Source: Ardenticatenaceae bacterium (GTDB lineage Bacteria; Chloroflexota; Anaerolineae; Promineifilales; Promineifilaceae). Taken from it: DNA of 64,000 bases. This document shows, in pieces, positions 1 through 64,000 of this stretch (positions are counted from its first letter, which is position 1; every line of letters starts with the position of its first letter). A model generated the notes under the pieces. It saw only the letters and a program-made list of their open reading frames with translations, made no database searches and was not told the origin of the DNA. The position numbers and the translations under genes are program-made. Location of the stretch: positions 16,118 through 80,117 of the forward strand of contig JACKBU010000014.1 in NCBI GenBank assembly GCA_020634395.1, in the 5' to 3' direction.

Positions 1-2
1 AG

Positions 3-1013
3 CAGTATGACGGCCAACTGCCACCCAAAGAGGATTTGTTATACGCCATCGTCGGCAGTTCCGTGGAGACGCTGGATGACCCTTACACGCGCTTTGTAGA
101 GCCGGACGTGGCCGCTCGCTTCCGCGAAGACATGGGCGGTTCAGTAGAAGGCATCGGCGCGTTTGTGCGCGAGACGGAAGACGGCTTTGTCGAGATCGTG
201 CGCCCTATCGATGGGCAGCCGGCGGACCTGGTAGGTTTGCAGGCCGGTGACCTGATCATCGGCGTGGACGGCGAATCGGTGGTCGGACAAACCATCGACG
301 AGGTGCTGTTGAAGGTGCGTGGCCCACAAGGGAGCGTGGTGACACTGACTGTTTTGCGCGACGGTGAGGAGGAATTGGACTTTACCGTTACGCGTACGCG
401 CTTCGAGATTCCGATCATCGAAAGCCAGATGGTCACCGACGACATCGGCTACGTGCACCTGACGGAGTTTAACGCCAACGCCGAGGAGAAAACGCTGGAA
501 GCGATTCAAGACCTGTTGGGACAGGGTGCGCAAAGCCTCATTTTTGATTTGCGGGATAACCCCGGCGGCTTCCTGGATCAGTCCATTGGCGTGGCCGATT
601 TGTTCCTGGCCGATGGCGTGGTCTTGTTCGAGCGTAACAACCAGGGGCTGGAAGAGACCTTTACGGCCGAAGCGGGCGACGAGGCAGAGGACATTCCGAT
701 TGTGGTGTTGATTAACGCGGCCAGCGCCAGCGCGTCGGAGATTGTGGCGGGCGCTTTGCGGGATAACGGCCGTGCCGCTCTCATCGGCGAAACCACCTTT
801 GGCAAAGGGTCGGTGCAGCAGCTCCACACCCTATCCGATGGCTCCGAACTGCGGGTAACTATTGCCCGCTGGTATACCCCGGCCAACGTCTCCATCAGCG
901 ACGCCGGCATTACCCCGGACATCGAAGTTGTCTCCCCGGATGATTTCACCCTGGGCGGCGAAGGCGATACGCAGCTGCAGCGGGCCATCGAGTATTTGCA
1001 GAACGGGCAGTGA
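3..1013 (+). CDS. S41 family C-terminal processing peptidase (PDZ + peptidase domains), 5' end cut by window edge
   Basis: Frame is open back to position 3. PDZ-like GLQAGDLIIGVDG. S41 motifs DLRDNPGGFL and NAASASASEIVAGALRDNGRAALIGETTFGKGSVQ. Confidence 0.9.
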   Translation, partial: QYDGQLPPKEDLLYAIVGSSVETLDDPYTRFVEPDVAARFREDMGGSVEGIGAFVRETEDGFVEIVRPIDGQPADLVGLQAGDLIIGVDGESVVGQTIDEVLLKVRGPQGSVVTLTVLRDGEEELDFTVTRTRFEIPIIESQMVTDDIGYVHLTEFNANAEEKTLEAIQDLLGQGAQSLIFDLRDNPGGFLDQSIGVADLFLADGVVLFERNNQGLEETFTAEAGDEAEDIPIVVLINAASASASEIVAGALRDNGRAALIGETTFGKGSVQQLHTLSDGSELRVTIARWYTPANVSISDAGITPDIEVVSPDDFTLGGEGDTQLQRAIEYLQNGQ

Positions 1014-1054
1014 GGGATGGTGTGCAGGTGTAAAGGTTCTCAGGTATTCCGGTA

Positions 1055-1111
1055 CTTGAACACCTGCACACTTGAACACTTAAACACCTGAACACCAGAT
1101 CACTTAAACAC
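1055..1111. repeat. five direct copies of YTRAACAC just upstream of smpB
   Basis: cttgaacac, cttgaacac, ttaaacac, ctgaacac and cttaaacac read directly in the 118-bp spacer before the smpB start. Confidence 0.6.
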
Positions 1112-1131
1112 TTAAGCAAACGTGTAAAACC

Positions 1132-1602
1132 ATGACGAAGACACAAGGCGGCATCAAAGTTATTGCCAAAAACAAGCGGGCGACCTTCGATTTTCAGCTT
1201 CTGGAGAAGTTTGAAGCAGGCATCTCGCTGAAAGGCACCGAAATCAAATCCATCCGCGACCATCAGGTGAACTTGCAGCGCAGTTACGTGCAGGCGCGCC
1301 GGGGGGAGTTGTGGCTGGTGGACATGCACATTGCGCCCTACGTGCACGGCTCCTACGAGAACCATGATCCGGTACGGCCGCGCAAGCTGCTGCTGCACCG
1401 GCGCGAGATCAACAAGATCATGGACCAACTGGCGCAGAAAAGCCTGACGGTTGTGCCGACGCGGCTGTACCTGAAAGACGGCCGTGCCAAAGTAGAAATC
1501 GCTCTGGCCCGCGGCAAACAAAAACACGACAAACGCCAGGACATCGCCAGGCGCGACGACGAGCGGCGTGTAGAGCGGGCATTACGAGAAAAGTATCGGT
1601 AG
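1132..1602 (+). CDS. smpB: SsrA-binding protein SmpB
   Basis: 156 aa. KVIAKNKRATFDFQLLEKFEAGISLKGTEIKSIR and LLLHRREINK are typical of SmpB, with a basic C-terminal tail. Confidence 0.95.
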   Translation: MTKTQGGIKVIAKNKRATFDFQLLEKFEAGISLKGTEIKSIRDHQVNLQRSYVQARRGELWLVDMHIAPYVHGSYENHDPVRPRKLLLHRREINKIMDQLAQKSLTVVPTRLYLKDGRAKVEIALARGKQKHDKRQDIARRDDERRVERALREKYR

Positions 1603-1622
1603 GGGAAACGGCCGTTTCCCCT
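1601..1622. terminator. perfect 22-nt palindrome AGGGGAAACGGCCGTTTCCCCT between convergent genes
   Basis: Overlaps the smpB stop (1600-1602) and the stop of the minus-strand gene (1621-1623). GC-rich stem built on the ACGGCCGT octamer. Confidence 0.6.
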
Positions 1623-3801
1623 ACTTGTCTTCCCCCGGCAGCTTAAACAGCAAAAACAACGTCAGAATAAACACAAATACCACCAGCAGCACCTGCACCA
1701 TCAGCGCCGAAGAGCGAGGCAGCGCCGTCGCTGGGGCATTCTTGGCAGCTGGGATAGCTTTCGGCGCGGGTACAGCTCCCTCGCCCACCGTCTCTACCAC
1801 GATGGTTCCCTCCGTCAGCGTCAGCAAATAATCGATCACCAGCTGCAGTTGGGCCGGGCTGAGGCGGCTTTCATAATCGCGGGGCATGATGTTGGGGATG
1901 CACGGGCCGTTGGGGCAGTCCGGCACGATGAAGGCGTTGGGGTCCAAAATGGACTGGCGCAGATATTCTTCAGCGCTCAGGCCAGGGACACGCGACCCGG
2001 CCACCAGACCGATGCCGGACAAATCCGGGCCCACCTTATGGCCTTCACCCAGCGCGCCAATTTTGTGGCAGGAGCCGCAGCCGGAGTTGAGGATGATGTC
2101 CTCAGCGCCTTCGCCCTGAACAGGGCGCGGCGTAGGCGTGGGGGCGGGTGTGGGGGTGTCGGCGGGCACAGCCGTAGCCGTGGCCGTCGGCATGGCGGCC
2201 AGTTCCTCCTCGGATGGCTGCACCAGTTCGCCTGCCGGCCGGGCAATCAGGAAGGTCTCGCACATGTTGATGCCCGGTTCGGGGTCTGGCGAACACCAGT
2301 AGGGCTCGCTCTTTTTGCTCTTCAGCAGCGGCACCCACCACAAAACCGGATCATCGCCAGACACCGGGTCGCCTTCCATCCACTGACGTGGCGGCACAAA
2401 GGTGTCGCCGGGGCCGGTCTGAATAGGACCGTCGCCTTCGCCTTCCTTGTACTGCAGCAAAAATACACGGGCTTCGTCGAGGCCCAGCGGGTCGGTGCGG
2501 GTCATTTGCCAGCGATAGTGGGTTTCGCCGTCGAAGGTGGCCAGTTTTTCGCCTTCCGGCGACAGGTCGTCGACGAAGGGGAAGAATTCGCTTTCGGCAG
2601 CGACAGGCACCCACTGGTTGGTGTCCCAGGCCCAGACTTCGTCTCCGCCACGGCCGTTTAACGTCAAATCCACGCGCCAGAACGGCCGGTAAACAGACAG
2701 GTCGTCGCAGCCGGGGCCGTGGGAGACAAAACCGAGGTCGAAACGGCCGTCATCATAAAAGCGCATGATCTCTTCATAGCGGTAGCAGCAGATGCAGTTG
2801 GGCCAGTGGGTGAACTCCGTAAACAACTGGCGCACTTCAAAGCCGTTGCCCAGGTCCGTTACCTGCGTATCGCCAAAAGGCGGCACCGAAGCGCGGAAAC
2901 CAATTTCGTCACGATAGCCGCCGGGCCAGCTGGGATACCAGGCCTCGATCTGACCAATCTTGGCGCTGGCAAAAATGGGCGTGCCTTCAAACGAGGCGTC
3001 ATAAAAGTTAATGCCGTCGCTGGCGGTCATTTCCCAGCAGACATTCCAGCCGTATTCGTCTTCTTTGCAGCCATCGGTGAAGGCGTAACGCTGCGGCTGC
3101 GGCGCGGCCACCGGCAGTTCGGCCCGGCCGCGTGTCATAAAGGTGCGGGCCACGCGGTTTTGCTGCATGTTGACAAAGACGTGGACGATCTTGCCGCTGC
3201 CGGCCGGGTCCTGGTAGGTCAGGTCCACACACCAGTCGTCGCGGCAGGCATCATCGGCCAGCCAGCCCGACATGGGAATCATGGCCGGGTCCATATCCAG
3301 GCTGCCCAACAAGTTTTGCACGCCAGGATCGGCGGCGGCGATGTCCAGGGCTTTGGGCAGGATGAATTCGCTGCCGCCGGGGCGGGCGTCGGGATTGGCC
3401 CAGCGGTCAACAATACGGCCGTTGCTGGTGTTGAGGATGGCGTTGACCGTGCCGCCGTGAGTGTAATCGTAGAGGGAGATGTGGACGCAGTTGTGGCTGG
3501 CGCAGCCGGCGTCTTGCCAGGGGGCGGCCTCGCCGGCACCCAGGACAACGGCGTCCAAAAAGTCGTAGTCGTCGCCGCCGAGCATGGCCAGCAGGCCGGC
3601 ATCGGCGAGGGCAATGGCTTGCATTTGCTGCTGGTCCAGGCGGACCTGGGTCAGGGCGGTCATATCGTACATCGCTTTGCCCTTGGCCACGGCCACGGCG
3701 ACGGTGTTTTGGTGGCGATACTGGTTCCAGGCAAAGCTGCCGGCCAGCAGCAGCCCGCAAAAGAGGATCAAGAAGAGAATGCGACGAGTGCGTCTATTCA
3801 C
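1621..3801 (-). CDS. membrane-anchored ~726-aa protein with C-terminal class I cytochrome c domain
   Basis: CGSCHK (CxxCH) heme motif with a downstream NIMPRD Met candidate. TP-rich linker and hydrophobic helices near both termini. Start moved to GTG at 3801, preceded by GAAGGAG; the longer ORF to 3864 reads through a repeat element. Confidence 0.6.
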   Translation of the reverse strand: MNRRTRRILFLILFCGLLLAGSFAWNQYRHQNTVAVAVAKGKAMYDMTALTQVRLDQQQMQAIALADAGLLAMLGGDDYDFLDAVVLGAGEAAPWQDAGCASHNCVHISLYDYTHGGTVNAILNTSNGRIVDRWANPDARPGGSEFILPKALDIAAADPGVQNLLGSLDMDPAMIPMSGWLADDACRDDWCVDLTYQDPAGSGKIVHVFVNMQQNRVARTFMTRGRAELPVAAPQPQRYAFTDGCKEDEYGWNVCWEMTASDGINFYDASFEGTPIFASAKIGQIEAWYPSWPGGYRDEIGFRASVPPFGDTQVTDLGNGFEVRQLFTEFTHWPNCICCYRYEEIMRFYDDGRFDLGFVSHGPGCDDLSVYRPFWRVDLTLNGRGGDEVWAWDTNQWVPVAAESEFFPFVDDLSPEGEKLATFDGETHYRWQMTRTDPLGLDEARVFLLQYKEGEGDGPIQTGPGDTFVPPRQWMEGDPVSGDDPVLWWVPLLKSKKSEPYWCSPDPEPGINMCETFLIARPAGELVQPSEEELAAMPTATATAVPADTPTPAPTPTPRPVQGEGAEDIILNSGCGSCHKIGALGEGHKVGPDLSGIGLVAGSRVPGLSAEEYLRQSILDPNAFIVPDCPNGPCIPNIMPRDYESRLSPAQLQLVIDYLLTLTEGTIVVETVGEGAVPAPKAIPAAKNAPATALPRSSALMVQVLLVVFVFILTLFLLFKLPGEDK

Positions 3802-4060
3802 AAAAGGACTCCTTCGGCAAGATTTCAACGCAGAGGCGCAAAGCCGCAGAGATGTAGTGAGCATAATCTCACTGGTCTCATTGCCTGCGTGTTGCTGGGC
3901 CGCCGCGTTTGTTGTCTCTGTGGTGGAACGGCCGTCTGACGATCATGGCGCTGATTATACCGTGTGCCCTAACCGAGAGGTAACGCTGACGGCGCACTGC
4001 GGTGAAACGGCCGTTCCCCTTTTTGCGTAAAGAGAGTGTCGTTTATCAACCATCGGGGAG

Positions 4061-5083
4061 TTGACCACTGGCGACGACCCAACAATGGCAGCAAACATGG
4101 TCACCTTAGCAGAATTTGAAGATCTAAACACCCAATTAATTGCCACCCGTAAACTCATCCGCGAACAGGAGCGCCTGCTGAACCTGATGGCCTCGCTGGA
4201 CGAGCAGCTGCGCGAGTCACGCCGCCGCCTTTCCAGGCTGGTCACGCGCCTGAAGTATGAGAAGGCCGACGTACAGGCTTTAGAAAGCCTGAGCGTAGAG
4301 GCGGTTTTTTATGCCTTGCTGGGCCGGCGCGAGCAGCAGTTGGCCCGCGAGGCCCAGGAGTACCTGGAAGTTAAAATGGAGACGGCCGCCTGCCGTCTGC
4401 GCATTGACAGCCTGGAACGCACCCTGCAGGCGCTGCAAGCCGACCTGGTGGACATTGTAGGCTGCGAGGAAGAGTATGCGCGGCTGCAGCAGGCGCAGGA
4501 AGCGCTGATTGTAGCCCTGGGCGCGCCGGAAAGCAGCCGCCTGGCGGAAACGCTGCGGGCCCTGGCCGTCAATGTGCAGTTCCAGAAGGAGGTGCGTGAA
4601 GCGGTAGAGGCCGGCGTGGCCGCCCTGGCGCGTTTAACGGCCGTCACCGATGCCCTGCTGGAACTGCGCTCCTGGGATGGCGTGTGGAGCATGGAGTTTG
4701 CCGAGGCGGGAAACGGCCGTTTCGCCCAGGTATTTGCGCTGGCCCACGAGGCCCAACCGCTGCTGGATCGCTTCCAGGCGGAATTGGTGGACGTGGAGCG
4801 GCAGTTCTTTAGCCCGCTCGACATGCGCATCCCGGCGCAGGCTGCGCCCACGCTGGTAACCTTGCCGGGCGCGCTGCTGGATCTATTTTTCCCCGAAGCG
4901 CAGGTTCCTGGCACGTTGCGCGATTGGTATACCTACCTGACCCAACTGCAGCGCCGCCTGCAACTGCGGCTGGACCTGCTGCAAGAGAGTTTGCAAGCTG
5001 TGGACGGCCGTCTGCTCCATCTGCGGCAGCAGCGGGCCGACCTGGTGGCCGCGTGCTGGGCGGCGGAGCGATTTGGCGGCTAG
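4061..5083 (+). CDS. hypothetical coiled-coil protein (start uncertain, ATG at 4085 possible)
   Basis: 340-aa ORF with coding-like composition and long heptad-like Leu/Glu/Arg-rich helices. No family recognised. Confidence 0.5.
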   Translation: MTTGDDPTMAANMVTLAEFEDLNTQLIATRKLIREQERLLNLMASLDEQLRESRRRLSRLVTRLKYEKADVQALESLSVEAVFYALLGRREQQLAREAQEYLEVKMETAACRLRIDSLERTLQALQADLVDIVGCEEEYARLQQAQEALIVALGAPESSRLAETLRALAVNVQFQKEVREAVEAGVAALARLTAVTDALLELRSWDGVWSMEFAEAGNGRFAQVFALAHEAQPLLDRFQAELVDVERQFFSPLDMRIPAQAAPTLVTLPGALLDLFFPEAQVPGTLRDWYTYLTQLQRRLQLRLDLLQESLQAVDGRLLHLRQQRADLVAACWAAERFGG

Positions 5084-6324
5084 GCCCGACCCAGCGCCCT
5101 GGCCACATGATGCACCAGCCGCTCGGCCACGGCCGTTTTGCTTAGCAGCGGCATCTCTTCCACCACCCCCGCCGAACTGAGCAGCACCACGCGGTTGGTG
5201 TCGACGGCAAAGCCCGCGCCTTCGGCCAGCACGTCGTTGACGGCGATGAAGTTGAGGCCCTTGCGTAAGAGTTTTTGACGGCCGTATTCAAACGCGTCAT
5301 GGGTCTCGGCGGCGAAGCCCAGCGACACGCGCGGGTAGCCGGTCTTCTCGCGCCGCTCCTTCACCGCGCTCAGAATGTCCAGCGTTACCTCCAGGCCAAT
5401 GGCCAGCCCCCAGCCGCCGTTGCCTTCCTCGTCCTGCTCCGTCTTTTTGATTTTGCGGTCCGACTGCCGCTCCGGGCGGAAATCGGCCACGGCGGCGACC
5501 ATGAACAGGGCGTCGGCGTCGGCGGTGGCCGCCAGGACGGCCTCGCCCATTTGCTGCGTCGTCTCCACGTCGAAGCGCGTCACGCCCTGGGGGGCCGGTT
5601 CGCTGATGGGGCCAGCGATAAGCGTGACCCGCGCCCCGGCGTCCAGCGCCGCCTGGGCCACGGCCAGCCCTTGTTTGCCCGTGGAGCGGTTGCTGATGTA
5701 GCGCACCGGGTCCAGCGCTTCCCGCGTCGGGCCGGTGCTGACGACGACGTGCAGCCCGGCCAGCGGGCCGGACCGGGCCAGGGCCAGGCGCACGGCGGTC
5801 AGCAGTTCGGGCGGCTCCACCATGCGGCCTAATCCGCTCAGGCCGGAAGCCATGCGCCCCTCGGCCGGGCCGACAAATTCCACGCCGCGCTGCTGCAGCG
5901 TGGCGATGTTGGCCTGGGTGGCGGCGTGGTCGTACATGCCGCCGTCCATGGCCGGGGCCAGCAGGAGGGGACAGCGGGCGGCCAGCGCCGTCACCGTCAG
6001 CAGATTGTCGGCAAGGCCGTGGGCCAGTTTGGCGATGGTGTGGGCAGTGGCCGGGGCGATGAGGTAGAAATCGGCCGTTTCGCCCAGCCCGACGTGGCGC
6101 ACATGGTCGTCCAGGTCCCACATCGAGGTGAAAACCGGCCGCCCGGTGACGGAGCGGAAGGCCAGCGGCGTGACGAACTTCTGCGCCGCTTCGGTCATGA
6201 TCACGTCGACTTGCGCCCCGGCCTGGGTGAGTTTGGAGGCCAGGTCGATGCTTTTGTAGGCGGCGATGGAGCCGCTGACGCCGAGAAGGAGTCGTTTATT
6301 TTGTAAAAGGGTGATGGGTTCCAT
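5080..6324 (-). CDS. coaBC: bifunctional phosphopantothenoylcysteine decarboxylase / phosphopantothenate-cysteine ligase
   Basis: 414 aa. N-terminal flavoprotein motif LLGVSGSIAAYK. C-terminal CoaB-like ISNRSTGKQG and AAVADF. Confidence 0.95.
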   Translation of the reverse strand: MEPITLLQNKRLLLGVSGSIAAYKSIDLASKLTQAGAQVDVIMTEAAQKFVTPLAFRSVTGRPVFTSMWDLDDHVRHVGLGETADFYLIAPATAHTIAKLAHGLADNLLTVTALAARCPLLLAPAMDGGMYDHAATQANIATLQQRGVEFVGPAEGRMASGLSGLGRMVEPPELLTAVRLALARSGPLAGLHVVVSTGPTREALDPVRYISNRSTGKQGLAVAQAALDAGARVTLIAGPISEPAPQGVTRFDVETTQQMGEAVLAATADADALFMVAAVADFRPERQSDRKIKKTEQDEEGNGGWGLAIGLEVTLDILSAVKERREKTGYPRVSLGFAAETHDAFEYGRQKLLRKGLNFIAVNDVLAEGAGFAVDTNRVVLLSSAGVVEEMPLLSKTAVAERLVHHVARALGRA

Positions 6325-6502
6325 AGTTCACTTGTTGGTCATCCGTTTTCCGTGGTCTGTGGGGTGTATTGTCGCAGAAAACGGCCGTGTGGACTAGATT
6401 CGGTTAAGAAATGGGACGCGGATTGTTAGGGATGCGGCGGATTTTCGCGGATACAAATCAGCTCTAACCGTTCTCCGTTCATTGTTATCTGTTGATTGTT
6501 AG

Positions 6503-6586
6503 GCACCGCCCGCACAATGCCATGCACTACCCGCACAGTGCCATGCACCGCCCGCACAGTGCCACGCACCGGCCGCAATGCTCTCA
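6503..6586. repeat. 21-bp tandem array A (about 4 copies, unit GCACCGCCCGCACAGTGCCAT)
   Basis: Units at 6503, 6524 and 6545, plus a degenerate unit at 6566, read directly. Confidence 0.85.
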
Positions 6587-6593
6587 TCCCCAC

Positions 6594-6950
6594 GGGGATG
6601 ACCATTGAGAACACGGGGATGACCATTGAGAACGCGAGGATGACCATTGAGAACGTAGGGATGACCATTGAGAACATGGGGATGACCATTGAGAACGTGG
6701 GGATGACCATTGAGAACACGGGGATGACCATTGAGAACGTAGGGATGACCATTGAGAACACGGGGACGACCCTTGAGAACGTGGGGATGACCATTGAGAA
6801 CACGGGGATGACCATTGAGAACGCGGGGATGACCATTGAGAACATGGGGATGACCATTGAGAACATGGGGATGACCATTGAGAACGTGGGGATGACCATC
6901 GAGAACACGGGGATGACCATCGAGAACACGGGGATGACCATCGAGAACGC
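6594..6950. repeat. 21-bp tandem array B (17 copies, unit GGGGATGACCATTGAGAACRY)
   Basis: Exact 21-nt periodicity from 6594 to 6950. Variation is almost entirely transitions within a 3-4-nt window. Intergenic, between the coaBC start and the stop of the DHH gene. Confidence 0.95.
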
Positions 6951-7012
6951 AGGGACGGCCGTTGCCGTGGCACGCTCAGCTGTTGGCCGCCAGGGAAACG
7001 GCCGTTTCCCCC

Positions 7013-16087: not shown

Positions 16088-16097
16088 GGAGACCGAA

Positions 16098-54722: not shown

Positions 54723-54856
54723 GGGGCTATTCGTTGTCTGGCGGCGATACGGCCGTTATTCGGCGCCTAATCCCACCAGTTGACCAGTCATAAGCTCCCC
54801 CATCGTTTTCTCCTCAAACATACAGTTTTTATCCACCTACTACAACCCCAGGTTCC

Positions 54857-54965: not shown

Positions 54966-55073
54966 GGTTGAAGTTAGATTGTCGTGGCTACGAACAACTG
55001 TCGCCTCCCGGCGGGGGCGGCGAGGTAGTTTTGGGGTGCGGCCGGTTAGCCGCTGCGCCCATCTGGAGGTAAC

Positions 55074-55574
55074 GTGGATAAGAGCAAGTCTTTTGACATG
55101 GACGCCTACGTGGCACGCATTACCAGCGGCCCTTGTTTTATTTGCGAGATTTTGGCCGGTAACCCGGACTATCCGCACCACATCATCTATCAGGACGAGG
55201 ATGCCATTGTTTTTCTCAATGCTTATCCGGCGCTGTATGGCTACACCCTGGTGGCGCCGTGCGCCCATCGGGAGCAGGTAACGGGCGATTTTACCCTGCC
55301 TGAATACTTGCGCTTGCAGGCAGTGATTTACCGTGTGGCCGAAGCCGTGCGCCGCGTGGTGCCTGCGGAGCGTGTCTATCTGCTTTCGTTGGGCAGCCAG
55401 CAGGGCAACAGCCACGTGCACTGGCACGTGGCCCCGCTGCCGCCCGGCGTCCCTTTCCACGAGCAGCAGTTAGAGGCGCTGCGCGTGGAAGATCGCATTC
55501 TTGATCTGTCCGAGGCTGAGATGGCGGCGCTGGCGGCGCAGATTCGGGCGGCGATGGATCAGTTGGAGGGCTGA
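55074..55574 (+). CDS. HIT family (histidine triad) hydrolase
   Basis: GTG start after GGAGG. CFICEI and NSHVHWHVAP (HxHxHxx) motifs. Confidence 0.85.
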   Translation: MDKSKSFDMDAYVARITSGPCFICEILAGNPDYPHHIIYQDEDAIVFLNAYPALYGYTLVAPCAHREQVTGDFTLPEYLRLQAVIYRVAEAVRRVVPAERVYLLSLGSQQGNSHVHWHVAPLPPGVPFHEQQLEALRVEDRILDLSEAEMAALAAQIRAAMDQLEG

Positions 55575-58027
55575 GTATCCGGCGTCCCCAGGCAAAGGGT
55601 GATACGGCCGTTATCCACCTCGCCCACGACCCGGCCGGCCAGCGCTGCTTCTACCCGCACTGTTTGTGCCCGGGTAATGCTTTGCAGGTCAGAAGCGGCT
55701 GCGGCCAGGGCCTGGACCAGGTCGGCATCCTGGGCGGCCAGGATGAGCGGCGGTAGTTCGGCGCCCAGCGACAGGTTGTGCTCGCTCTTGTAGCGGCGCA
55801 CGGCCGTGGCGATGTCGATGAGCAGATTGCCATGGGCAACGGCCGTGTCATCCCGCCAGCTCTCGTCACCCACCGGCCAGGCTGCGCGGTGGATCGAGTC
55901 GCCGGCCGCGGCGAACAAGCCCTCGTAAATTTGCTCGGTGACAAACGGCAGGAACGGGGCGAACAGCTTCAGCGTGGCCAGCAGGGCCTCTCCCAGCGCG
56001 AAACGGGCGCCATCGCCCGATGGCCCCCCATCGTACAGGCGCTGTTTAGCCATCTCCAGGTAATTATCCGCCAGCACCGACCAGAAAAATGTTTCAGTCT
56101 CGCTCTTGGCTGTGGCGTAATCATAGTCCCACATCAGCGCCGTCACCCGCTCGATAAGCTGCTGTGTGCGCGCCAGCAGCCAGCGGTCGCCCAGGGTGAA
56201 GGCGTGGGGCGATTCGGGCTTTCCCGTTTCGGCCGTCTCCAGGAACCGTTGGCTAAAGCGGGCCACATTCCACAACTTGGTCACCAGCTTGGCTCCGGCC
56301 TGCACTTTTTCCTCGGAGATCACGGCATCGCGGCCAAAACCGGTGGAGGCTGCCCAATAGCGCACCGCGTCGGCCGAGTATTGTTCGATCATCGCCAGGG
56401 GAGCCACCGGCCCGCCGCCCCGGCTTTTGCTGATTTTGCCTGTGCCCTCCGGCGCCAATCCCCAACCGGAAATGGCAATGGTCTCAAACGGCACTTTGCC
56501 CCAATGATGGTGTGATTTGACGATGGTGTAGAAAGCCCAGGTGCGAATGATCTCGTGGGCCTGGGGCCGCAGGGCAAAAGGATAAACCTGGGCGTACAGT
56601 GCTGGATCGGCAAAGAACTGGCCCACGATCTGCGGCGAGAGGGAGGAGGTGGCCCAGGTATCCATCACGTCGCGCTCGGGCAGGAAGGAACGGCCGTTAC
56701 AGGCGGGACACGGCCGTGGCGGTTCAGACTCCACCGGGTCTACGGGCAAATCGGCTTCGTCGGCCAGCACGATTTGGCCGCAGGCGGCGCAGGTCCAGGC
56801 GGGGAAGGGCACGCCAAAGGTGCGCTGCCGTGAGATGCCCCAGTCCCAGGCCAGGTTTTCCACCCATTGGCGATAACGGGCGGCCATATGCGGCGGCTGC
56901 CAACTGATTTGCTCCCCGGCGGCCAGCAGCTCCTCCTTGAAATCGAGCACGCGGATAAACCATTGGCGGGCGACGATATATTCCACGGGCGTGTCGCAGC
57001 GCTCGTGGACGCGCACAGCCTGGGCGATGGGGCGGCTGCCCAGCAGCTGACCGGCCTGCCTTAAGGCGGCCACGATGGCGGTGCGCGCCTCTGGAACGGT
57101 GTGGCCGGCAAAGGCAGCGGCGGCGGTGGTAAGACGGCCGTCGCGCCCAATGGCTTCGATCAGCGGCAGGCGGTGAATGTGCCACCAGGCCACGTCGGTC
57201 TGGTCGCCGAAGGTACAGCACATGACGGCGCCGGTGCCTTTGGCGGGGTCGGCCTCCGGGTCGGCCAGGATGGACACGCGCTGCCCAAAGAGGGGCACCA
57301 TTGCCTGGCGGCCGATGAGGTGGGTGAAACGGCCGTCTTCGGGATGCACAAACACAGCCACACAGGCCGGCAGCAGTTCTGGGCGCGTGGTGGCAATTTC
57401 CAGCGTCCGGTCGTCGTCCAACCCGAAGGCCAGCGTGTAGAAAGCGGCTTCGCGTTCCAGGTCGTTCAGTTCCGCCTGGGCGATGGCCGTCTGGCACTCC
57501 GGGCACCAGATGGCCGGCGCTTCTTGCTGGTAGGCCAGCCCTTTGTGGTATAGGTCGATGAACGACCATTGGGCCAGCTTGCGGCTGTGGGCGTCGATGG
57601 AGCGGTAGCTGTAGCGCCAGTCGATAGACAGGCCCAGCCGCTGCCATAGTTCGCGGTAATCCTTCTCGGCCTCTTCGCTGACGGCCAGGCAGCGTTCGAT
57701 GAAGGCCTGGCGCCCGGCGAGAGCGGCGGTGATGTTTTCCCGCCGTTCTACCAGGCGCTCGGTGGGCAGGCCGTTGTCATCGAAGCCCATGGGATAGAAA
57801 ACGTTACGGCCGTTCATGCGCATAAAACGGGCCATGAAATCCGTGTGGCTGTAGGAGTAGACATGCCCCAGGTGTAAGTGGCCGGACACGGTTGGCGGTG
57901 GTGTGTCGATGCTGTAGATTACACCGGACTGGTCCGGGTTAAAGTGGTAAATACCGTCGGCCAGCCATTGGTCGCGGCGGGCAGGTTCGGCCGTTGTGGG
58001 ATTGTAACGTTTAGGCAAACTCATCAC
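55559..58027 (-). CDS. valS: class I aminoacyl-tRNA synthetase, most likely valine--tRNA ligase (actinobacterial/archaeal-like type)
   Basis: HIGH motif GHLHLGHVYSY and KMSKS-type KISKSRG. PMGFDDNGLPTERLVE matches my recollection of this ValRS subtype. The upstream T-box has a candidate GUC specifier. Confidence 0.7.
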   Translation of the reverse strand: MMSLPKRYNPTTAEPARRDQWLADGIYHFNPDQSGVIYSIDTPPPTVSGHLHLGHVYSYSHTDFMARFMRMNGRNVFYPMGFDDNGLPTERLVERRENITAALAGRQAFIERCLAVSEEAEKDYRELWQRLGLSIDWRYSYRSIDAHSRKLAQWSFIDLYHKGLAYQQEAPAIWCPECQTAIAQAELNDLEREAAFYTLAFGLDDDRTLEIATTRPELLPACVAVFVHPEDGRFTHLIGRQAMVPLFGQRVSILADPEADPAKGTGAVMCCTFGDQTDVAWWHIHRLPLIEAIGRDGRLTTAAAAFAGHTVPEARTAIVAALRQAGQLLGSRPIAQAVRVHERCDTPVEYIVARQWFIRVLDFKEELLAAGEQISWQPPHMAARYRQWVENLAWDWGISRQRTFGVPFPAWTCAACGQIVLADEADLPVDPVESEPPRPCPACNGRSFLPERDVMDTWATSSLSPQIVGQFFADPALYAQVYPFALRPQAHEIIRTWAFYTIVKSHHHWGKVPFETIAISGWGLAPEGTGKISKSRGGGPVAPLAMIEQYSADAVRYWAASTGFGRDAVISEEKVQAGAKLVTKLWNVARFSQRFLETAETGKPESPHAFTLGDRWLLARTQQLIERVTALMWDYDYATAKSETETFFWSVLADNYLEMAKQRLYDGGPSGDGARFALGEALLATLKLFAPFLPFVTEQIYEGLFAAAGDSIHRAAWPVGDESWRDDTAVAHGNLLIDIATAVRRYKSEHNLSLGAELPPLILAAQDADLVQALAAAASDLQSITRAQTVRVEAALAGRVVGEVDNGRITLCLGTPDTQPSN

Positions 58028-58330: not shown

Positions 58331-58521
58331 TCCCGGAGCAGTGTACGATATGAGATTGTTGGGTCACATTATACGTGAGACCGAAGGCCCGTGGCAAGCG
58401 CTGTTTGAGACTGTTTTGGGCTCAAGGCCCCGGAGCGTCAGAACCGGAGACGGCCGTTCCGTCTGAGGCTGCGCAGGAGGGCGGGCTGGATCCGGAAGTA
58501 GCCGATCTCCAGGCAGCATCC

Positions 58522-58733: not shown

Positions 58734-61700
58734 ATGAAACGATCGTTGCTTACTTCTCCTCCGTTACTGGTCATGTTGTATGGGCTGTTTGGGGTTGTCT
58801 GGATTCTATTTACTGACCGGCTGCTCGCTGTCTTGCTACCGGATACGGCTCAGATGGTTCGCTGGCAAACGCTAAAAGGGTGGCTGTTTGTCGCTTTGAG
58901 TATGCTGCTGCTGGCCTGGATTTTGACATTTAGCCGCAAACAATATCGCCAGACGCAGGAAGTATTAAAACGACGAGAAAGGGAGTACCGGGTCTTGTTC
59001 GAGAACAATCCGCTGCCCATGTGGGTTTACGATGAAGAATCGCTGGCCTTTTTGGCGGTGAACGAAGCGGCCGTTACGCAGTATGGATATTCCCGACCTG
59101 CCTTTTTGAACATGACGTTGAAAGACATTCGCCCAGAGGAAGATATTCCCCGGCTGTTAACGGATGTGGCGGCGACCTTTCGGCCGTTAAACCGGGCAGG
59201 AGAATGGCGCCATCGGCGGCGCGACGGTACGGTTTTTCCGGTGGAGATCGTGTCGCACGCGCTTGCTTACGAAGAGCACAAGGCGCGTCTGGTGGTGGCC
59301 TATGATTTAACAGAGCGGCAGCGGACTGAGCAGCTGCGGCGTGAAAGTGAAGAGCGTTTCCGCAATGCTATCAAGCAGGCCCCGTTTCCCATCATTTTAC
59401 ATGCCGAGGATGGTGAGGTTTTGACCGTTAACCAAACCTGGATGGAAATCACCGGCTATCAAGCTGAAGAACTGGCGACCGTTTCCGATTGGACAGAACG
59501 AGCCTATGGCGAGCGGCAGCTGCCTGTCCTGGAGGGAATTGATCGGTTGTATGATTTGAACCAGCGCGTGGCGGAAGGGGAGTTTACCATCACCTGCCGT
59601 GATGGTTCGCAGCGGATTTGGGAGTTTAGCTCGGCACCGCTGGGACCGCTGCCTGACGGCCGTCGCAGTGTCATGAGCATGGCTGTGGATGTGACCGAAC
59701 GAAAACTGGCGGAAGCCAGGCTGCACGAAGTGGCCACCGAACTGGACGGCTACTTCACCAATTCGCTGGATTTGCTATGCATCGCCGACGAGGATGGGTA
59801 TTTCCGGCGGTTGAACAAACAGTGGGAAGAAACCTTAGGATTTTCCCTGGACGACTTGGTCGGCCGTCAGTTTTTGGAGCTGGTTCATCCGCACGATAGA
59901 GAGAAAACAGTGGGGGCCATGCAGCGGTTGGCTAATCACGAACGAGTCTTCGACTTTGTCAATCGCTACCGGCATCGTGCCGGTAATTACCGTTGGATTG
60001 AGTGGCGCGCGTCCCAGGTGGGCGATGCTATCTACGCTGCCGCGCGTGATATTACCGAACACATTCAGAACGAGCAGCAGCTCCGCCTCCAGAGTGCCGC
60101 CTTGGAAGCCGCGGCCAATGCCATTGTGATTTTCGACGTAGACGGCCGTGTCGAGTGGGTGAATCCGGCCTTTACCGAGATGACGGGGTACAGCCGGGAA
60201 GAGGCCCTGGGCCGCCAACTGAAAGGTCTGGTGCGCTCTGAGCTCCACGATCAAACAGTCTACGACGAGATGGCAGAGGCCATATTGTCCGGCGAGAACT
60301 GGCATGGCGAAATCGTCAACCGGCGCAAAGACGGCACCCACTACATCGAGGAAAGCTCTTTTACCCCGGTGCGCGATGAGCGAGGTGAAATCGTCCACTA
60401 CGTCGCCATCAAACAGGACGTAACCAGCCGCCGCGTTGCCGAACGGGAGAGGGAACGACTCCTGGCGCAGGTGCAGGCGCAGGCCGAACAGTTGACGCAA
60501 ATTATGCAGAGCGTTCCCGAGGGAATCCTGCTTCTGGATAAGCAGAACCGCATCCTGATGGCCAACGCGCAAGGGCAGGAATATCTGGCGCTGCTGGGCA
60601 GTCAGCAGGTGGGCGATGTCCTGACGCACCTGGGGTCGTTGTCTTTGGAGGCGCTGCAAACCTCGCCTACGACCGGCGGGGGTCATGAGTTGGCCACGGA
60701 AAACGGCCGTATCTTCAAAACGGCCGTGCGCCCCATCGAAACCACCGCCATCTCCGATGGTTGGATTTTGGTTCTGCGGGAAACAACCCGCGAGCAATTT
60801 GTACAGCGGCAGTTGCAGCAGCAAGAAAAACTGGCGGCCATTGGCCAGTTGGCCGCAGGCATTGCCCACGATTTCAACAACATCATGGCCGTCATCATCC
60901 TCTACGCCCAGTTAGCCGAAAAGGCGCCCGACCTGGGTGATGCCGTTCGCCAGCGGCTGAATGTAATTGTCCAGCAGGCCAATAGAGCGGCGGCCTTGAT
61001 CCAGCAAATTTTGGATTTCAGTCACAAGTCGGTTATGAAACGCCAGCCGGCCGATTTGCTGGCGCTTTTGCAGGAGCAGATTGAACTGCTGCAGCGCATG
61101 CTGCCGGAAAACATCGACATCCAGTTCAGCTACCAACCGGACGAATACATCATCCTGGCTGATTTGCCCCGCATCCAGCAATCGATCATGAATCTGGCCG
61201 TTAACGCCCGCGATGCCATGACTGCGGGCGGACGGCTTCTGATACATCTGACCCGCCTCACCATTCCCAGCGGCCAAAAATCGCCGCTGCCCCGTATGGC
61301 TCCCGGCGAATGGATTCAGCTTGTTATCCGTGATACGGGCGGGGGCATCGCGCCCGACTTGCTGCCGCGCGTGTTTGAACCGTTTTTCACCACCAAAAAA
61401 CCGGGCGCCGGTACGGGCCTGGGTCTGGCGCAGGTTCATGGCATTATCACCCAGCATGATGGCGACATTGTGGTGGAAAGCCAGCCGGGCGAGGGCACAA
61501 CCTTCACGATCTATTTGCCTGCTTTAAAAGTGGAGGGTGAACTACAAACGGCCGTGCCCGACATGACACTTCCCATGGGCAGCGGCGAGTTGTTGTTGAT
61601 CGTCGAGGATCAAGAACCGCTGCGCCAGGCTCTGGCTGAAAGTCTGGCGGCCTGGCATTACCGGACGCTGACGGCCGCTAACGGCGAAGAGGCGCTGGCC

Positions 61701-61985
61701 CTGCTCGACCAACAAGAGGACGTGGCACTCGTCATCAGTGACATTATTATGCCCAGAATGGGTGGGGAAACACTGGTGAAAAATATCCGTCAGCGAGATG
61801 TACAGATTCCTATTCTGTTGATGTCTGGCCATCCGCTGGATGTTGATATGTCTAAGTTTGGCGTGCTGGGTGTCTCGATCGTGTTGGGAAAACCAATTCA
61901 GCCGGAGCAGTTGGCCCGGACGGTCGCTGTGGCCCTGGGTAAAAACCTGCTGCCGCCCGGCCCGACTGACTCCAGCAGCTTATAA
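58734..61985 (+). CDS. hybrid sensor histidine kinase (TM + multiple PAS + HisKA/HATPase + receiver)
   Basis: H-box [11 protein letters not shown]. ATPase boxes [16 protein letters not shown] and GTGLGLA. C-terminal receiver [10 protein letters not shown]...[12 protein letters not shown]. Confidence 0.9.
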
Positions 61986-62564
61986 CAGTTTGCTGATCAG
62001 GTCCTTGTGCGGTGAAGGGATGACGGTGAAGGAATCGATGACGCCTTCGTCCTTGAGTTTGGCTACGGCCGTTTCCACCCCGCTCCGCACTGCGCTTATC
62101 TCGCCGGTAAACACGGTAAATGCTTTGCCACCCATGGCAAACGGCAGGCGGATTTCGATGAGTTGCAGGGGGGCGGCTTTAACGGCCGTATCCGCCGCCA
62201 CAATCGCCGCCGCCAGCGTAAACGTCTCCACCACGCCGATGGACTTCACTTCCTCAATTTCTGTCGTCGCCGTCAGCGCCGGGAAGACGCTGGGATGCAC
62301 GTTGGAGAGGATGAAATGGTCTACCACCACCTCCGGCGCGACCTGCTGCCCTACGGCTACGGCATTTTTCACGTGGCTGATGGCCCCGGCGATGAGGATG
62401 ATGTACTTGCCAGGGCAGACCACGTGGGCGCGCAGCAGCTCCACATCGGCCGCCTTCAGGAGGGCGTCGGTGGTCAATATACCGCGCGCGATGCTGCGCA
62501 GTTCAATCAGGCCAATGGCCCGTTTGGGGGTTGTTGTTCGGGGGATTTCAATTTGTGGCATCAT
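61980..62564 (-). CDS. tandem-BMC-domain microcompartment shell protein (BMC-T, PduT-like)
   Basis: Two BMC repeats: AIGLIELRSIARGILTTDALLKAADVELL...CPGKY and SIGVVETFTLAAAIVAADTAVKAAPLQLIEI...GGKAF. Start at ATG-ATG 62564; the longer ORF reads through a hairpin. Confidence 0.8.
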   Translation of the reverse strand: MMPQIEIPRTTTPKRAIGLIELRSIARGILTTDALLKAADVELLRAHVVCPGKYIILIAGAISHVKNAVAVGQQVAPEVVVDHFILSNVHPSVFPALTATTEIEEVKSIGVVETFTLAAAIVAADTAVKAAPLQLIEIRLPFAMGGKAFTVFTGEISAVRSGVETAVAKLKDEGVIDSFTVIPSPHKDLISKLL

Positions 62565-62599
62565 CTTATTTCGCCTCGGATGACGGAGTTGATTAGTTG

Positions 62600-62661
62600 G
62601 TTTGTTGGTTTGTTTGTTGGTTGGTTTGCTACCTAACCAACCAACAAACAAACCAACTAAC
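62600..62661. repeat. low-complexity hairpin with a 23-bp perfect stem
   Basis: 62604-62626 GTTGGTTTGTTTGTTGGTTGGTT pairs perfectly with 62635-62657. 8-nt loop TGCTACCT. Confidence 0.9.
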
Positions 62662-62671
62662 AAACTTCTTC

Positions 62672-64000
62672 TTACCCAACTTCCTTCGCTTCAATCACAA
62701 TAGATTCATTACTAACACTGACCACCACGCCGTCCATGCTGGCGTGGACCGGCGCGCCGAGGCCGCCTTTGGTAATTTCGCCAACCAGGTCACCGCATTT
62801 CACCACATCGCCCACTTTGACGACCGGCCACGCCGGCATGCCGATGTGCTGGCGCATGAGCAGTTCGACGCGGGTGAAGGGGGTGGAGACGGCCGTTAAC
62901 GGGGCCGCCACGTCATACTTCGCCAGATCCAGCCGGTTAATCAGCCGGGTCATCGGCACGCGGCGATAATCGCGGTAGGGGTCAGCTTCCGTGGTGCGGT
63001 GGTAGGGATTTTTCATCCCCTCGCGCACCAGATCACGTTTGATATTCAGGGCAATGTCGCCCGGCGACAGGTGTACCGGGCAGGCATAGTTGCAGGTGCG
63101 GCATTCACAGCACAGCATCGCCCCGGCCATCTGCGCGTCCGTCAGCGGCACGCCGGAAGCCAGCAGCAAGATCAGCTTGTGGGGCTGGATGGCATGGCCC
63201 TGCGCGTGGCGCGGGCAGTAGTCGGTGCACATGTAGCACTGGTCGCACGCGGCAATGGCGTGGGCGTCGAATATTTCGCGCGGCGTGCGCCGCTTGACGC
63301 TGAGTTGGTGATCGTAGGGGAGCACCAGCAGCATCTTGGTGCGCTTGGTCACGGGGGCGTCCAGGTCACCCACCACATTGCCCATCATCGCCCCGCCATC
63401 CAGAATGACGGGATCGGGCGTGGTGAGACCGCCGGCCAGGGCCAGCACGTCGCGCAGGCGGATGCCAATCGGCACTTTGACGGTCACGGGCTGGCGCACG
63501 GCGCCAATGACGGTGATGAATTTTTCGGTGACGGGACGGCCGTGTAACGCCGCGTCAATGTTGTAAAGTGTCTCAATGTTCTGCACCACGCAGCCCACGT
63601 CGATGGGCAGGCCGCCTTCCGGCACCACGCGGCCCATCACGTCGTACACCAGCACTTGCTCATCGCCCGCCGGGTAAAAATTGCCCAGTTCGGCAATGGT
63701 GATGTCGGTAGCGTCGCCCAGCGCTTTGCGCAGCTTGGCAATCACTTCTTTATACTTGCCCTTCACGCCCAAAATGCCCCGCGCCGCGCCGGTGGAGTGC
63801 ATCGCCGCCCGCAGCCCGGCAATCACTTCCGGGGCGTGATGGAGCATGAGCTGCTTATCCACGTGGGTCAGCGGCTCGCACTCCGCTCCATTGGCGATGA
63901 CCACTTCGGCCTGCGCCTGGAGCTTGACGTAAGTCGGGAATCCGGCCCCCCCGGCCCCGGTCACACCGGCGGCCTGCACCGCCTGGACAATTTCTTGCGT
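62672..64000 (-). CDS. PduS/RnfC-like Fe-S flavoprotein (NADH-dehydrogenase 51-kDa-like + SLBB + 2x[4Fe-4S]), 5' end beyond window
   Basis: GVTGAGGAGFPTYVKL. Ferredoxin motifs CDQCYMCTDYCP and CCECRTCNYACP. C-terminal barrel-sandwich-like VKVGDVVKCGDLVGEI. The frame stays open to position 64000; the M in the ORF track is an internal GTG. Confidence 0.8.
   Translation of the reverse strand, partial: TQEIVQAVQAAGVTGAGGAGFPTYVKLQAQAEVVIANGAECEPLTHVDKQLMLHHAPEVIAGLRAAMHSTGAARGILGVKGKYKEVIAKLRKALGDATDITIAELGNFYPAGDEQVLVYDVMGRVVPEGGLPIDVGCVVQNIETLYNIDAALHGRPVTEKFITVIGAVRQPVTVKVPIGIRLRDVLALAGGLTTPDPVILDGGAMMGNVVGDLDAPVTKRTKMLLVLPYDHQLSVKRRTPREIFDAHAIAACDQCYMCTDYCPRHAQGHAIQPHKLILLLASGVPLTDAQMAGAMLCCECRTCNYACPVHLSPGDIALNIKRDLVREGMKNPYHRTTEADPYRDYRRVPMTRLINRLDLAKYDVAAPLTAVSTPFTRVELLMRQHIGMPAWPVVKVGDVVKCGDLVGEITKGGLGAPVHASMDGVVVSVSNESIVIEAKEVG

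Follow-up and report, generated by a model that had tools for sequence, protein, structure and literature searches.

A 64,000-base stretch of contig JACKBU010000014.1 (positions 16,118 to 80,117 of the forward strand; assembly GCA_020634395.1, Ardenticatenaceae bacterium, Chloroflexota), here called the window, is densely populated by the palindromic octamer ACGGCCGT. This octamer is a highly iterated palindrome (HIP) of the kind represented by HIP1, and it is a counterpart, outside the cyanobacteria, of that still-unexplained element. It forms a clade-wide 'watermark' of the Promineifilales/Ardenticatenales lineage, at about 1.6-2.1 copies per kb and spread almost randomly over genes and spacers. 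Copies fill nearly every position that the encoded proteins tolerate, and elsewhere amino-acid changes have been forced. The recognised object is double-stranded DNA in which the CGGCCG core is hard, the outer A/T positions are less strict and the whole forms a soft 16-bp palindrome, GGAAACGGCCGTTTCC.

Abundance of the octamer in the window

The window (56.2% GC) contains 103 copies of ACGGCCGT, i.e., 1,609 per Mb or about one per 600 bases; a sequence-only reading, made from the letters and without database searches, had counted about 100. Base composition predicts 1.50 copies (69-fold enrichment), and 100 dinucleotide-preserving shuffles gave a mean of 1.31 (standard deviation 1.16, maximum 6; 79-fold). 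Markov models predict 1.37 copies at order 1, 2.9 at order 2 (35-fold) and 5.1 at order 3 (20-fold), which makes the roughly 50-fold excess given in that reading a fair estimate. The maximal-order Markov check that it had also called for returned observed/expected (O/E) ratios of 2.8 and 1.2 at orders 5 and 6. This drop occurs because the 6- and 7-mers from which such models are built consist almost wholly of ACGGCCGT copies (171 CGGCCG, 118 ACGGCCG and 123 CGGCCGT in the window). The high orders were therefore rejected as a test of enrichment, and their low ratios do not speak against it.

The most frequent octamers of the window are mainly overlapping words of ACGGCCGT, and the runner-up palindromic octamer has 8 copies. 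The related palindromes GCGGCCGC (2 copies) and CCGGCCGG (6 copies) are not enriched against the 2.5 expected, as had been stated from the sequence alone. Further over-represented octamers, namely GGATGACC and words akin to it, are due to a tandem array with the 21-bp unit CACGGGGATGACCATTGAGAA, found at 6591-6955 (17.4 copies, 90% matches) and also at 6503-6577 and 54857-54966. The array encodes heptapeptide repeats on either strand, GMTIENx in open reading frame (ORF) 6496-7074(+) and SMVIPxF in ORF 6426-6941(-), has no Pfam match and varies only in the last three bases of each unit.

Reading frames and effect on the proteome

Called ORFs on both strands hold 84 of the copies and 19 lie outside them, in non-coding DNA that makes up about 9% of the window. 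All three frames are occupied, as claimed earlier, though unequally. The octamer is read 42 times as ACG GCC GTn (Thr-Ala-Val, TAV), 36 times as nAC GGC CGT ([N/D/Y/H]-Gly-Arg) and 6 times as nnA CGG CCG Tnn (Arg-Pro). Both examples cited in the earlier reading hold up, since the copy at 26197 forms codons 4-6 of ORF 26188-28866 (MLETAV) and the one at 34731 encodes NGR.

Codon choice within these tripeptides is close to saturated. The motif spells 42 of the 45 TAV tripeptides of the window (7.6 expected from codon usage), 36 of the 42 [NDYH]GR tripeptides (2.5 expected) and 6 of 13 permissive x-R-P-x contexts (0.15 expected). The tripeptides themselves are also in excess. Proteins of motif-rich loci, 77.5 thousand residues in all, contain 219 TAV where 36 are expected, and 22-51 of each of its five permutations; NGR occurs 85 times (11.5 expected) and DGR 71 times (18 expected). 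Overall the inflation is 4-7-fold, reaching 6-fold for TAV and 7-fold for NGR. Motif-free relatives show no comparable distortion (62 TAV against 46.5 expected in 120.7 thousand residues), and both TAV inflation and codon saturation track the gradient of motif density across genomes. Because the inflated tripeptides replace other residues that are found in motif-free orthologues, we conclude that a DNA motif has rewritten proteins. The earlier proposal of a constraint on DNA rather than on protein is thus right as to DNA, given that the flanks described below are alike in all frames, but it understates the effect, as the proteome has been changed. This places the octamer among the strongest cases known to us of a DNA-level process overriding protein sequence, with 4-7-fold inflation compared with about 2-fold for uptake sequences.

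Copy numbers per gene fit a Poisson distribution (chi-square p = 0.25), and 7 of 102 long genes are free of copies where 8.3 would be expected. There is therefore no association with gene class or promoters. The sole positional trend is a modest excess of copies in the final tenth of genes.

Conservation at orthologous sites

A class I aminoacyl-tRNA synthetase (aaRS), encoded by ORF 55559-58027(-), carries eight copies and was used to follow individual sites across genomes. Its motif sites lie in ungapped alignment columns and are common to 7-12 motif-rich genomes: 55604-55611 (NGR, 7 genomes), 55800-55807 (TAV, 11), 55839-55846 (TAV, 9), 57134-57141 (DGR, 10), 57329-57336 (DGR, 12) and 57806-57813 (NGR, 10). 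The copy at 56690-56697 (NGR) is specific to the window, and 56710-56717 is read as PRPC. In motif-free orthologues the counterpart of DGR at 57329-57336 is D[A/P/T/E/K/S]R, that of NGR at 57806-57813 is NGY or NGH, and that of TAV at 55839-55846 is DAE. A TPV that is invariant elsewhere has turned into TAV in three genomes. Since the differences are substitutions only, in columns free of gaps, the motif spreads by substitution and not by insertion.

The comparison of orthologous sites proposed from the sequence alone was extended to five syntenic genomes with 76-83% nucleotide identity. In 80% of pairwise comparisons a motif octamer was retained at the aligned position, a share that drops to 24% for octamers in general and to 27.5% for those matched in composition. 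Of 69 motif columns, 25 are common to all five genomes. Sites are thus retained well above control octamers.

One-base deviations concentrate at the first and last positions, to which protein tolerance contributes. Variants at the outer positions are enriched (TCGGCCGT 5.3-fold, GCGGCCGT 3.3-fold and CCGGCCGT 1.4-fold), the same words being depleted in motif-free relatives (0.3-0.5-fold), and 18 of the 25 single differences between syntenic genomes fall at position 1/8. CGGCCG outside the full motif is enriched as well. Inner-position variants occur at about 0.3-1.5 times expectation, except for C>T at position 2/7 (ATGGCCGT/ACGGCCAT; 2.4-fold). This excess resembles decay from C to T but is explained by tolerated V/I and R/H replacements (TAI/TAM and xGH) and not by start codons, and no footprint of methyl-cytosine deamination could be told apart from protein-level tolerance. 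Every NCGGCCGN octamer stands at 0.3-0.5 times the base-composition expectation in a 257-kb pool of motif-free relatives (L009, L010, L012, L013 and others), so the motif-rich clade has reversed a local avoidance of CGGCCG.

Flanking sequence, spacing and hairpins

The flank bias (G)AA-motif-TT(C) noticed in the sequence-only reading is real though weak in the window, amounting to 0.1-0.3 bit per position with none beyond about 4 bases. When copies of the window were pooled with those of eleven relatives (500 in total), A was preferred at -1 (44-64%) and -2, and G at -3 and -4, mirrored on the opposite side. The resulting preference GGAA|ACGGCCGT|TTCC is the same whichever of the three frames a copy occupies, and intergenic copies share it. 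A single palindromic preference that holds in all frames and between genes indicates that the constraint acts on DNA. Past about 4 bases the flanks are unrelated, and the copies therefore are independent octamers, as had been supposed, and not parts of one dispersed longer repeat.

Spacing in the window, a stretch too short for the periodicity on a 10-90 kb scale that is claimed for HIP1, is near-exponential (mean 615, median 478, coefficient of variation 0.94). Six pairs of copies are 17-20 bp apart where about 0.7 would be expected, i.e., 10881/10899, 15852/15870, 40189/40208, 42639/42656, 56690/56710 and 60703/60720; three of these are intergenic hairpins and three lie within genes. A preferred spacing of 17-20 bp was rejected as a general feature, as 213 kb of other motif-rich chromosomal DNA yielded only 1 more pair; the close pairs are mostly local hairpins.

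The hairpins around copies proposed earlier were found at 1608 and 42639/42656, whereas the copy at 6998-7005, outside called ORFs, has only a 7-bp local stem that is no better than in shuffled sequence (z = -0.14). The first (1598-1625, centred on the copy 1608-1615) lies between the convergent smpB and ORF 1621-3864, with a 12-bp stem (-20 kcal/mol, z -4.1). The second (42633-42669) follows ORF 40374-42617, and its arms are the copies 42639-42646 (5' arm) and 42656-42663 (3' arm), with a 16-bp stem (-33.1 kcal/mol, z -8.0). Three more were detected between genes. At 10879-10908 the copies 10881-10888 and 10899-10906 pair with each other (-19 kcal/mol, z -4.9), as do 40189-40196 and 40208-40215 at 40180-40222 (-22.3 kcal/mol, z -4.5), and at 11850-11891, between convergent ORFs, the copy 11864-11871 makes up part of the stem and loop of a hairpin with an 18-bp stem (-32.9 kcal/mol, z -7.1). 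Rfam and tRNA scans of the window gave no matches.

Distribution in the clade and a sister variant

The nearest relatives of the window aaRS (63-71% identity) come from metagenome-assembled genomes (MAGs) labelled Candidatus Leptofilum gracile, Promineifilaceae and Ardenticatenaceae (Chloroflexota, class Ardenticatenia). Each relative was sampled as a locus of about 22 kb around its orthologue. ACGGCCGT is the top octamer in eleven genomes, at 12-21 copies per 10 kb, reaches 4-7 per 10 kb in three, and is nearly absent (about 0-1) from the remaining Chloroflexota and the outgroups. Among these activated-sludge and soil MAGs, JACKBQ010000002.1 (2.2 Mb), JADJOJ01, JACKBS01 and JACKCC01 are examples with ACGGCCGT (A-type), CAWEDV010000001.1 is intermediate, and DATHSI01 and CAZOGK01 are motif-free sisters. 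In a single-gene neighbour-joining tree, which is provisional, the motif-bearing genomes form one broad group. A look-up of the exact protein sequence of the window aaRS matched no record. The SmpB of the window has a verbatim match on a 1.3-kb contig of JGI metagenome 3300010349, and a pattern scan of metagenome contigs for three motifs returned further Chloroflexota-like contigs with 19-31 copies per 10 kb.

One relative that falls adjacent to or inside this group, L017 (JACKCB010000005.1, Ardenticatenaceae HK-STAS-CHLO-36), has zero copies of ACGGCCGT and 49 of CCGGCCGG in 20.9 kb (34-fold). In 83% of cases C/G adjoin the latter, so that its motif is CCCGGCCGGG (C-type), which has CGGCCG in common with ACGGCCGT. 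Here the tripeptides Pro-Ala-Gly, Pro-Gly-Arg and Arg-Pro-Gly (PAG, PGR, RPG) are inflated 5-7-fold.

Other repeated palindromes were encountered along the way. In a 22.4-kb locus of an uncultured archaeon (L070, CAZFEL010000003.1), CCTCGAGG occurs 16 times against 0.65 expected (about 25-fold); it contains the XhoI core, we take it to be the AbsI site, and it may be another HIP-like watermark, in this case archaeal. Besides ACGGCCGT, two cases of iterated palindromes were met by chance among 80 loci. In the metagenomes Ga0056108, Ga0056133-35, Ga0209259 and Ga0209459, the octamer occurs within a longer palindromic repeat, TGTACACGGCCGTGTACA, with 70-96 copies per 10 kb and a GC content of 52-55% (loci L180, L187, L206, L207, L209-L212, L222-L224, L234-L239, L244, L246, L250, L253, L254 and L257). 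These loci share no protein similarity with the Chloroflexota loci and represent something else, namely a genuine repeat of the dispersed or tandem kind.

Phages and mobile elements

Pattern scans of IMG/VR recovered about 25 contigs with 12-46 ACGGCCGT copies per 10 kb. Some encode phage structural proteins: a major head protein (E = 3e-61), a head-maturation protease and a minor tail protein in L112/L299, and a tape-measure protein with minor tail proteins in L114. Copy density in these head and tail modules is 17-30 per 10 kb. The motif spells 8 of 9, 11 of 13 and 16 of 17 of their TAV tripeptides, and for [NDYH]GR the counts are 6 of 7 in L112, 4 of 4 in L299 and 0 of 3 in L114. Being hyper-abundant in host and phage alike, at host-like density in the latter, the motif is not a restriction target that phages avoid. 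Resident mobile DNA is subject to whatever maintains the motif, or makes use of it.

The highest densities seen, 28-40 copies per 10 kb, are those of L154/L092/L160 (IMGVR_UViG_3300048592_001391) and L085/L315 (IMGVR_UViG_3300033417_000002). With FtsK/SpoIIIE-like, ParA-like, helicase and transglycosylase proteins encoded in L154, L092 and L085, these elements look more like conjugative or plasmid-like DNA than like phage. A higher density in mobile elements (33-40 per 10 kb) than in chromosomes was considered and rejected, because some chromosomal-looking metagenome contigs have 28-31; the density is only 'at least host-like'. In L314 (IMGVR_UViG_3300033072_001034), an IS1595 transposase adjoins an SPPY-type N6_N4 methyltransferase, probably of the N4-methylcytosine (m4C) type, and an MvaI/BcnI-family endonuclease (8314-10738). 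This island has a GC content of 44-48% and fewer motif copies than the motif-rich element around it, as expected for a recent arrival.

Comparison with known iterated motifs

HIP1 has reportedly been an open problem since 1993, and to our knowledge all evidence on it comes from one phylum. The present motif is not HIP1 proper, as it is ACGGCCGT and not GCGATCGC and its host is a member of the Chloroflexota and not a cyanobacterium. The HIP1-like behaviour asserted in the sequence-only reading is nonetheless borne out by all five testable properties: an octamer palindrome far above expectation, occurrence in all frames (42/36/6 in frames 0/1/2) and in non-coding DNA (19 copies), propagation by substitution, conservation above control octamers, and one-base deviations at the ends. 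Both motifs are GC-rich palindromic octamers whose inner hexamer is a classic type II site. Density and O/E (69) also lie inside the ranges of HIP1, which are 300-2,700 copies per Mb and 55-228 (Elhai, PMC4390886), and Xu et al. used O/E > 16 as threshold (PMC5861425). HIP1 too is conserved between genomes above control octamers (PMC5861425). The two motifs differ in the core, which is CGATCG in HIP1; the motif studied here has no internal GATC and hence no Dam-type component. Further differences are the host group (class Ardenticatenia), the soft 16-bp extension, the presence on phage modules, and the documented effect on the proteome, with 4-7-fold tripeptide inflation and over 85-90% saturation.

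The alternate HIPs of cyanobacteria (GGGATCCC, TCGATCGA, CAGGCCTG, GCsGC and rCCGGy; Elhai 2015, Xu 2018) offer a parallel for the sister variant, since there as well related lineages have different palindromes. ACGGCCGT and CCCGGCCGGG have the inner hexamer in common in the same way as HIP1 and TCGATCGA have CGATCG. In cyanobacteria, however, each alternate was matched to a methyltransferase gene of the same genome, whereas no cognate methyltransferase was found in the sequences searched here.

The uptake signal sequences (USS) of Pasteurellaceae and the DNA uptake sequences (DUS) of Neisseriaceae resemble the motif in their density of about 1 per kb, in spreading by substitution and drive, in a tripeptide excess and in their use in terminator hairpins. 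They are asymmetric 9-12-mers with a tripeptide excess of about 2-fold (PMC2817400) and a demonstrated uptake bias, whereas ACGGCCGT is a perfect palindrome. Depletion in acquired or phage DNA, which is typical of uptake sequences, does not apply to the phage modules; only the L314 island is poorer in copies. Repetitive extragenic palindromic (REP) sequences, bacterial interspersed mosaic elements (BIME) and miniature inverted-repeat transposable elements (MITE) are likewise short palindromic DNA in many copies, sometimes in intergenic hairpins. Those are, however, units of 20-400 bp with conserved flanks that are inserted mainly between genes, in contrast to the 8 bp found here, with flank information of at most 0.3 bit, no indels and 82% of copies inside ORFs.

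In E. coli, CCWGG is the site of the Dcm methyltransferase and is favoured by site-specific T:G correction by Vsr. Words shaped by such very-short-patch (VSP) repair are only modestly affected, not 20-80-fold as here, and no Vsr or Dcm homologue was present in the sequences searched. No literature report of an iterated palindrome in Chloroflexota, Anaerolineae or Ardenticatenia was found, in a search of incomplete coverage in which the matches to the octamer were primers. With its own core, its graded densities (0, 4-7 and 12-21 per 10 kb) and its sister variant, this independent system provides a direct route to the responsible gene. As a cheap marker, the octamer can also serve to bin the clade and to link phages and mobile elements with uncultured hosts. 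Genetic tools built for these wastewater filaments might have to include the motif or carry its modification.

Possible mechanism and alternatives

The explanation we favour, with roughly even confidence, is that the motif is read sequence-specifically in all resident DNA and confers a methylation-linked advantage. The reader would most likely be a cytosine methyltransferase of CGGCCG type and orphan status, or else a protein akin to the EagI/NotI-type recognition family. Such a reader would give motif-bearing alleles better transmission or survival. One route would be mismatch correction that is coupled to methylation and biased towards restoring or creating the site (Elhai's ratchet, or VSP-like repair); the other would be a methylation-dependent preference for marked DNA during uptake and recombination, as has recently been reported for HIP1. 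The origin suggested in the sequence-only reading, a CGGCCG- or GGCC-directed methyltransferase, Vsr-like repair or gene conversion, is likewise a hypothesis. We take CGGCCG to be the site of the EagI/XmaIII family. The EagI relatives NotI, EaeI/CfrI and GdiII differ precisely in the outer bases, and a shift in the outer-base specificity of the reader may have produced the sister lineage with CCCGGCCGGG.

A link to methylation is suggested by the pattern of one-off variants and by the variant with a shared core, which mirror HIP1 and its CGATCG methyltransferase (Elhai, PMC4390886). In cyanobacteria, cognate methyltransferases co-occur with HIPs, including the alternate ones (Elhai, PMC4390886), and methylated HIP1 boosts recombination and raises transformation more than 100-fold (10.1101/2024.09.10.611283). 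The host-like density in phage modules supports a process that acts on any resident DNA.

Several observations weigh against a methylation-linked reader. The gene was sought by Pfam annotation of 50 window ORFs and by tblastn, in which Dcm, Vsr, Dam and YhdJ of E. coli served as queries and the window, 80 genome loci, about 120 viral loci and 120 metagenome loci as targets. Neither the window nor some 0.9 Mb of motif-rich DNA sampled from many genomes yielded a cognate DNA methyltransferase, Vsr or MutH-like gene. As only about 0.2 hits would be expected in that amount, this result is uninformative rather than negative evidence. The only methyltransferases on motif-rich mobile elements belong to the MvaI/BcnI-type m4C restriction-modification system of L314 and to a Dam-like gene of L164; both were rejected as the cognate enzyme, as neither fits CGGCCG. 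A hexamer-specific methyltransferase alone leaves the outer A/T and the soft 16-bp palindrome unexplained. No signature of C-to-T decay was found, C2>T accounting for 0 of the 25 single differences between syntenic genomes. Finally, the conservation of sites is equally compatible with selection on a function and with a restoring repair bias, which it cannot separate.

The best surviving alternative, which we regard as unlikely, is a DNA-uptake or 'self' signal similar to USS/DUS or Chi, where a surface or periplasmic receptor, or a recombination enzyme, prefers the motif and molecular drive spreads it with no need for methylation. With about 1 copy per 0.5-0.6 kb the motif comes near USS/DUS in density, and encoded tripeptides are inflated in both cases (about 2-fold for USS/DUS, PMC2817400, and 4-7-fold here). 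Several intergenic copies lie in terminator-like hairpins, as DUS pairs do, copies are slightly in excess at the 3' ends of genes, and current work on HIP1 points to transformation. On the other hand, known uptake sequences are asymmetric 9-12-mers, and in USS species genes that lack homologues in relatives are devoid of uptake sequences, whereas the phage head and tail genes examined here are fully marked.

It is improbable that the copies are sites for an abundant dimeric chromosomal protein, involved in nucleoid organisation, condensation or segregation, each kept by purifying selection. The soft 16-bp palindromic footprint would be typical of a dimeric binder, conservation is strong, the spread over genes is uniform and Poisson-like, and a role in chromosome structure has been proposed for HIP1 by Xu et al. 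(PMC5861425). However, with some 8,000 sites per genome, each of tiny value, saturation above 90% would be hard to keep by selection alone, and the change of TPV to TAV at a conserved position suggests a force beyond weak selection. Electrophoretic mobility shift assays in cyanobacteria, as cited in a HIP1 preprint, found no HIP1-binding protein.

Selection on proteins or translation (TAV and xGR peptides, codon pairs), or a general mutational or compositional bias, is effectively refuted as the source of the motif. Although two frames, with just two classes of peptide, account for 78 of the 84 coding copies, non-coding DNA is at least as dense, the palindromic flanks are alike in all frames, and permutations of the tripeptides show no enrichment. 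The motif is predicted neither by Markov models of low order nor by dinucleotide shuffles, and it is absent from motif-free relatives with similar GC content and the same proteins. The view that the copies belong to a longer dispersed element (REP, MITE or satellite), or are artefacts of assembly or adapters, could invoke TGTACACGGCCGTGTACA in some unrelated metagenome contigs. It is effectively refuted too, by the lack of flank information past about 4 bases, by the in-frame, indel-free positions inside conserved genes and by identical sites in MAGs assembled independently in different studies.

More broadly, HIP-type watermarks might be no peculiarity of cyanobacteria but a general phenomenon that has evolved repeatedly, in which a modular reader with a fixed CGGCCG core, lineage-specific outer bases and a 16-bp footprint marks DNA as 'resident' and drives its own site to saturation in chromosome, phages and mobile elements, rewriting about 0.5% of protein residues. 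We offer this wider view tentatively and consider it rather doubtful. If true, the A-type, C-type, intermediate and motif-free genomes would form a natural experiment for identifying the reader by gene presence and absence, which three decades (30 years) of work on HIP1 have reportedly not accomplished.

Positions of the remaining copies and other genes of the window

Besides the copies in the aaRS gene and in hairpins, the octamer was located at the following sites, given without strand. At the left end, ORF 36-1013(+) reads 766-773 as NGR and smpB, ORF 1132-1602(+), reads 1478-1485 as DGR. ORF 1621-3864(-) contains 2650-2657 (NGR), 2743-2750 (DGR) and 3415-3422 (NGR), ORF 4061-5083(+) contains 4637-4644 (TAV), 4713-4720 (NGR) and 5004-5011 (DGR), and in ORF 5080-6324(-) 5129-5136 is read as TAV and 5278-5285 as YGR. 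The three copies of ORF 8296-9255(-) give GRPL (8415-8422), DGR (8665-8672) and NGR (8917-8924). They are followed by 10541-10548 in ORF 10507-10812(+) (NGR), 13334-13341 in ORF 12696-13379(-) (KRPF) and the close pair 15852-15859 (DGR) and 15870-15877 (NGR) in ORF 13715-16087(+).

ORF 15927-19004(+) has TAV at 16857-16864 and YGR at 18484-18491, while ORF 20300-21949(+) has YGR at 20547-20554 and TAV at 21893-21900, and ORF 21990-23702(+) has TAV at 22803-22810. Within ORF 23593-25413(+), TAV is encoded at 24523-24530, 24646-24653 and 25267-25274, and DGR at 25004-25011. The MalT-like ORF 26188-28866(+) uses TAV throughout, at 26197-26204, 27712-27719, 27991-27998 and 28111-28118. The same peptide is specified at 29899-29906 in ORF 29704-30132(+), at 32107-32114, 32245-32252 and 32356-32363 in ORF 31075-32817(+), and at 33407-33414 in ORF 32780-34495(+). 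Both copies of the LURP-like ORF 34598-35152(+) encode NGR (34731-34738 and 34803-34810), and both of ORF 35232-36113(+) encode TAV (35472-35479 and 36048-36055). All three frames are represented in ORF 36765-38117(-), with TAV at 36844-36851 and 38095-38102, YGR at 37368-37375, HGR at 37926-37933 and QRPL at 37430-37437.

ORF 40374-42617(+) shows TAV at 40524-40531 and 41655-41662, YGR at 41008-41015 and 41740-41747, and DGR at 41416-41423. Downstream, ORF 43555-45615(+) contains TAV at 43909-43916 and 45553-45560, PRPY at 44802-44809, NGR at 45281-45288 and TRPF at 45492-45499. TAV copies are found at 48271-48278 and 48430-48437 in ORF 47908-48558(+), and at 48666-48673 and 49692-49699 in ORF 48582-49877(+), the latter also having YGR (49726-49733) and HGR (49846-49853). 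TAV is again encoded at 52207-52214 in ORF 51370-52245(+), at 52520-52527, 53213-53220 and 53420-53427 in ORF 52271-53692(+), and at 53880-53887 and 54102-54109 in ORF 53733-54566(+), where 54316-54323 gives NGR. To the right of the aaRS gene, ORF 58734-61985(+) carries DGR at 59656-59663 and 60142-60149, NGR at 60703-60710 and TAV at 60720-60727 and 61548-61555. The last copies are 62065-62072 and 62182-62189 in ORF 61980-62663(-) (both TAV) and 62889-62896 (TAV) and 63536-63543 (HGR) in ORF 62672-63979(-).

Outside called ORFs and apart from the hairpins, copies are situated at 3928-3935, 4007-4014, 6381-6388, 6955-6962, 20256-20263, 38990-38997, 39981-39988, 54749-54756 and 58450-58457, and one (30459-30466) is at the 3' edge of ORF 30148-30459.

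Seven ORFs encode DUF1269 proteins (11958-12533, 12696-13379, 15927-19004, 28970-29509, 36132-36644, 39456-39953 and 52271-53692), two of them as fusions, one with a sulfatase and one with a diacylglycerol-kinase-like protein. The same region also encodes four SulP/STAS transporters, two sulfatases and two DUF308 proteins. At the right edge of the window, a shell protein with a BMC domain (61980-62663) adjoins an RnfC/Nuo51-like Fe-S flavoprotein (62672-63979), and with this pair a bacterial microcompartment locus may begin.

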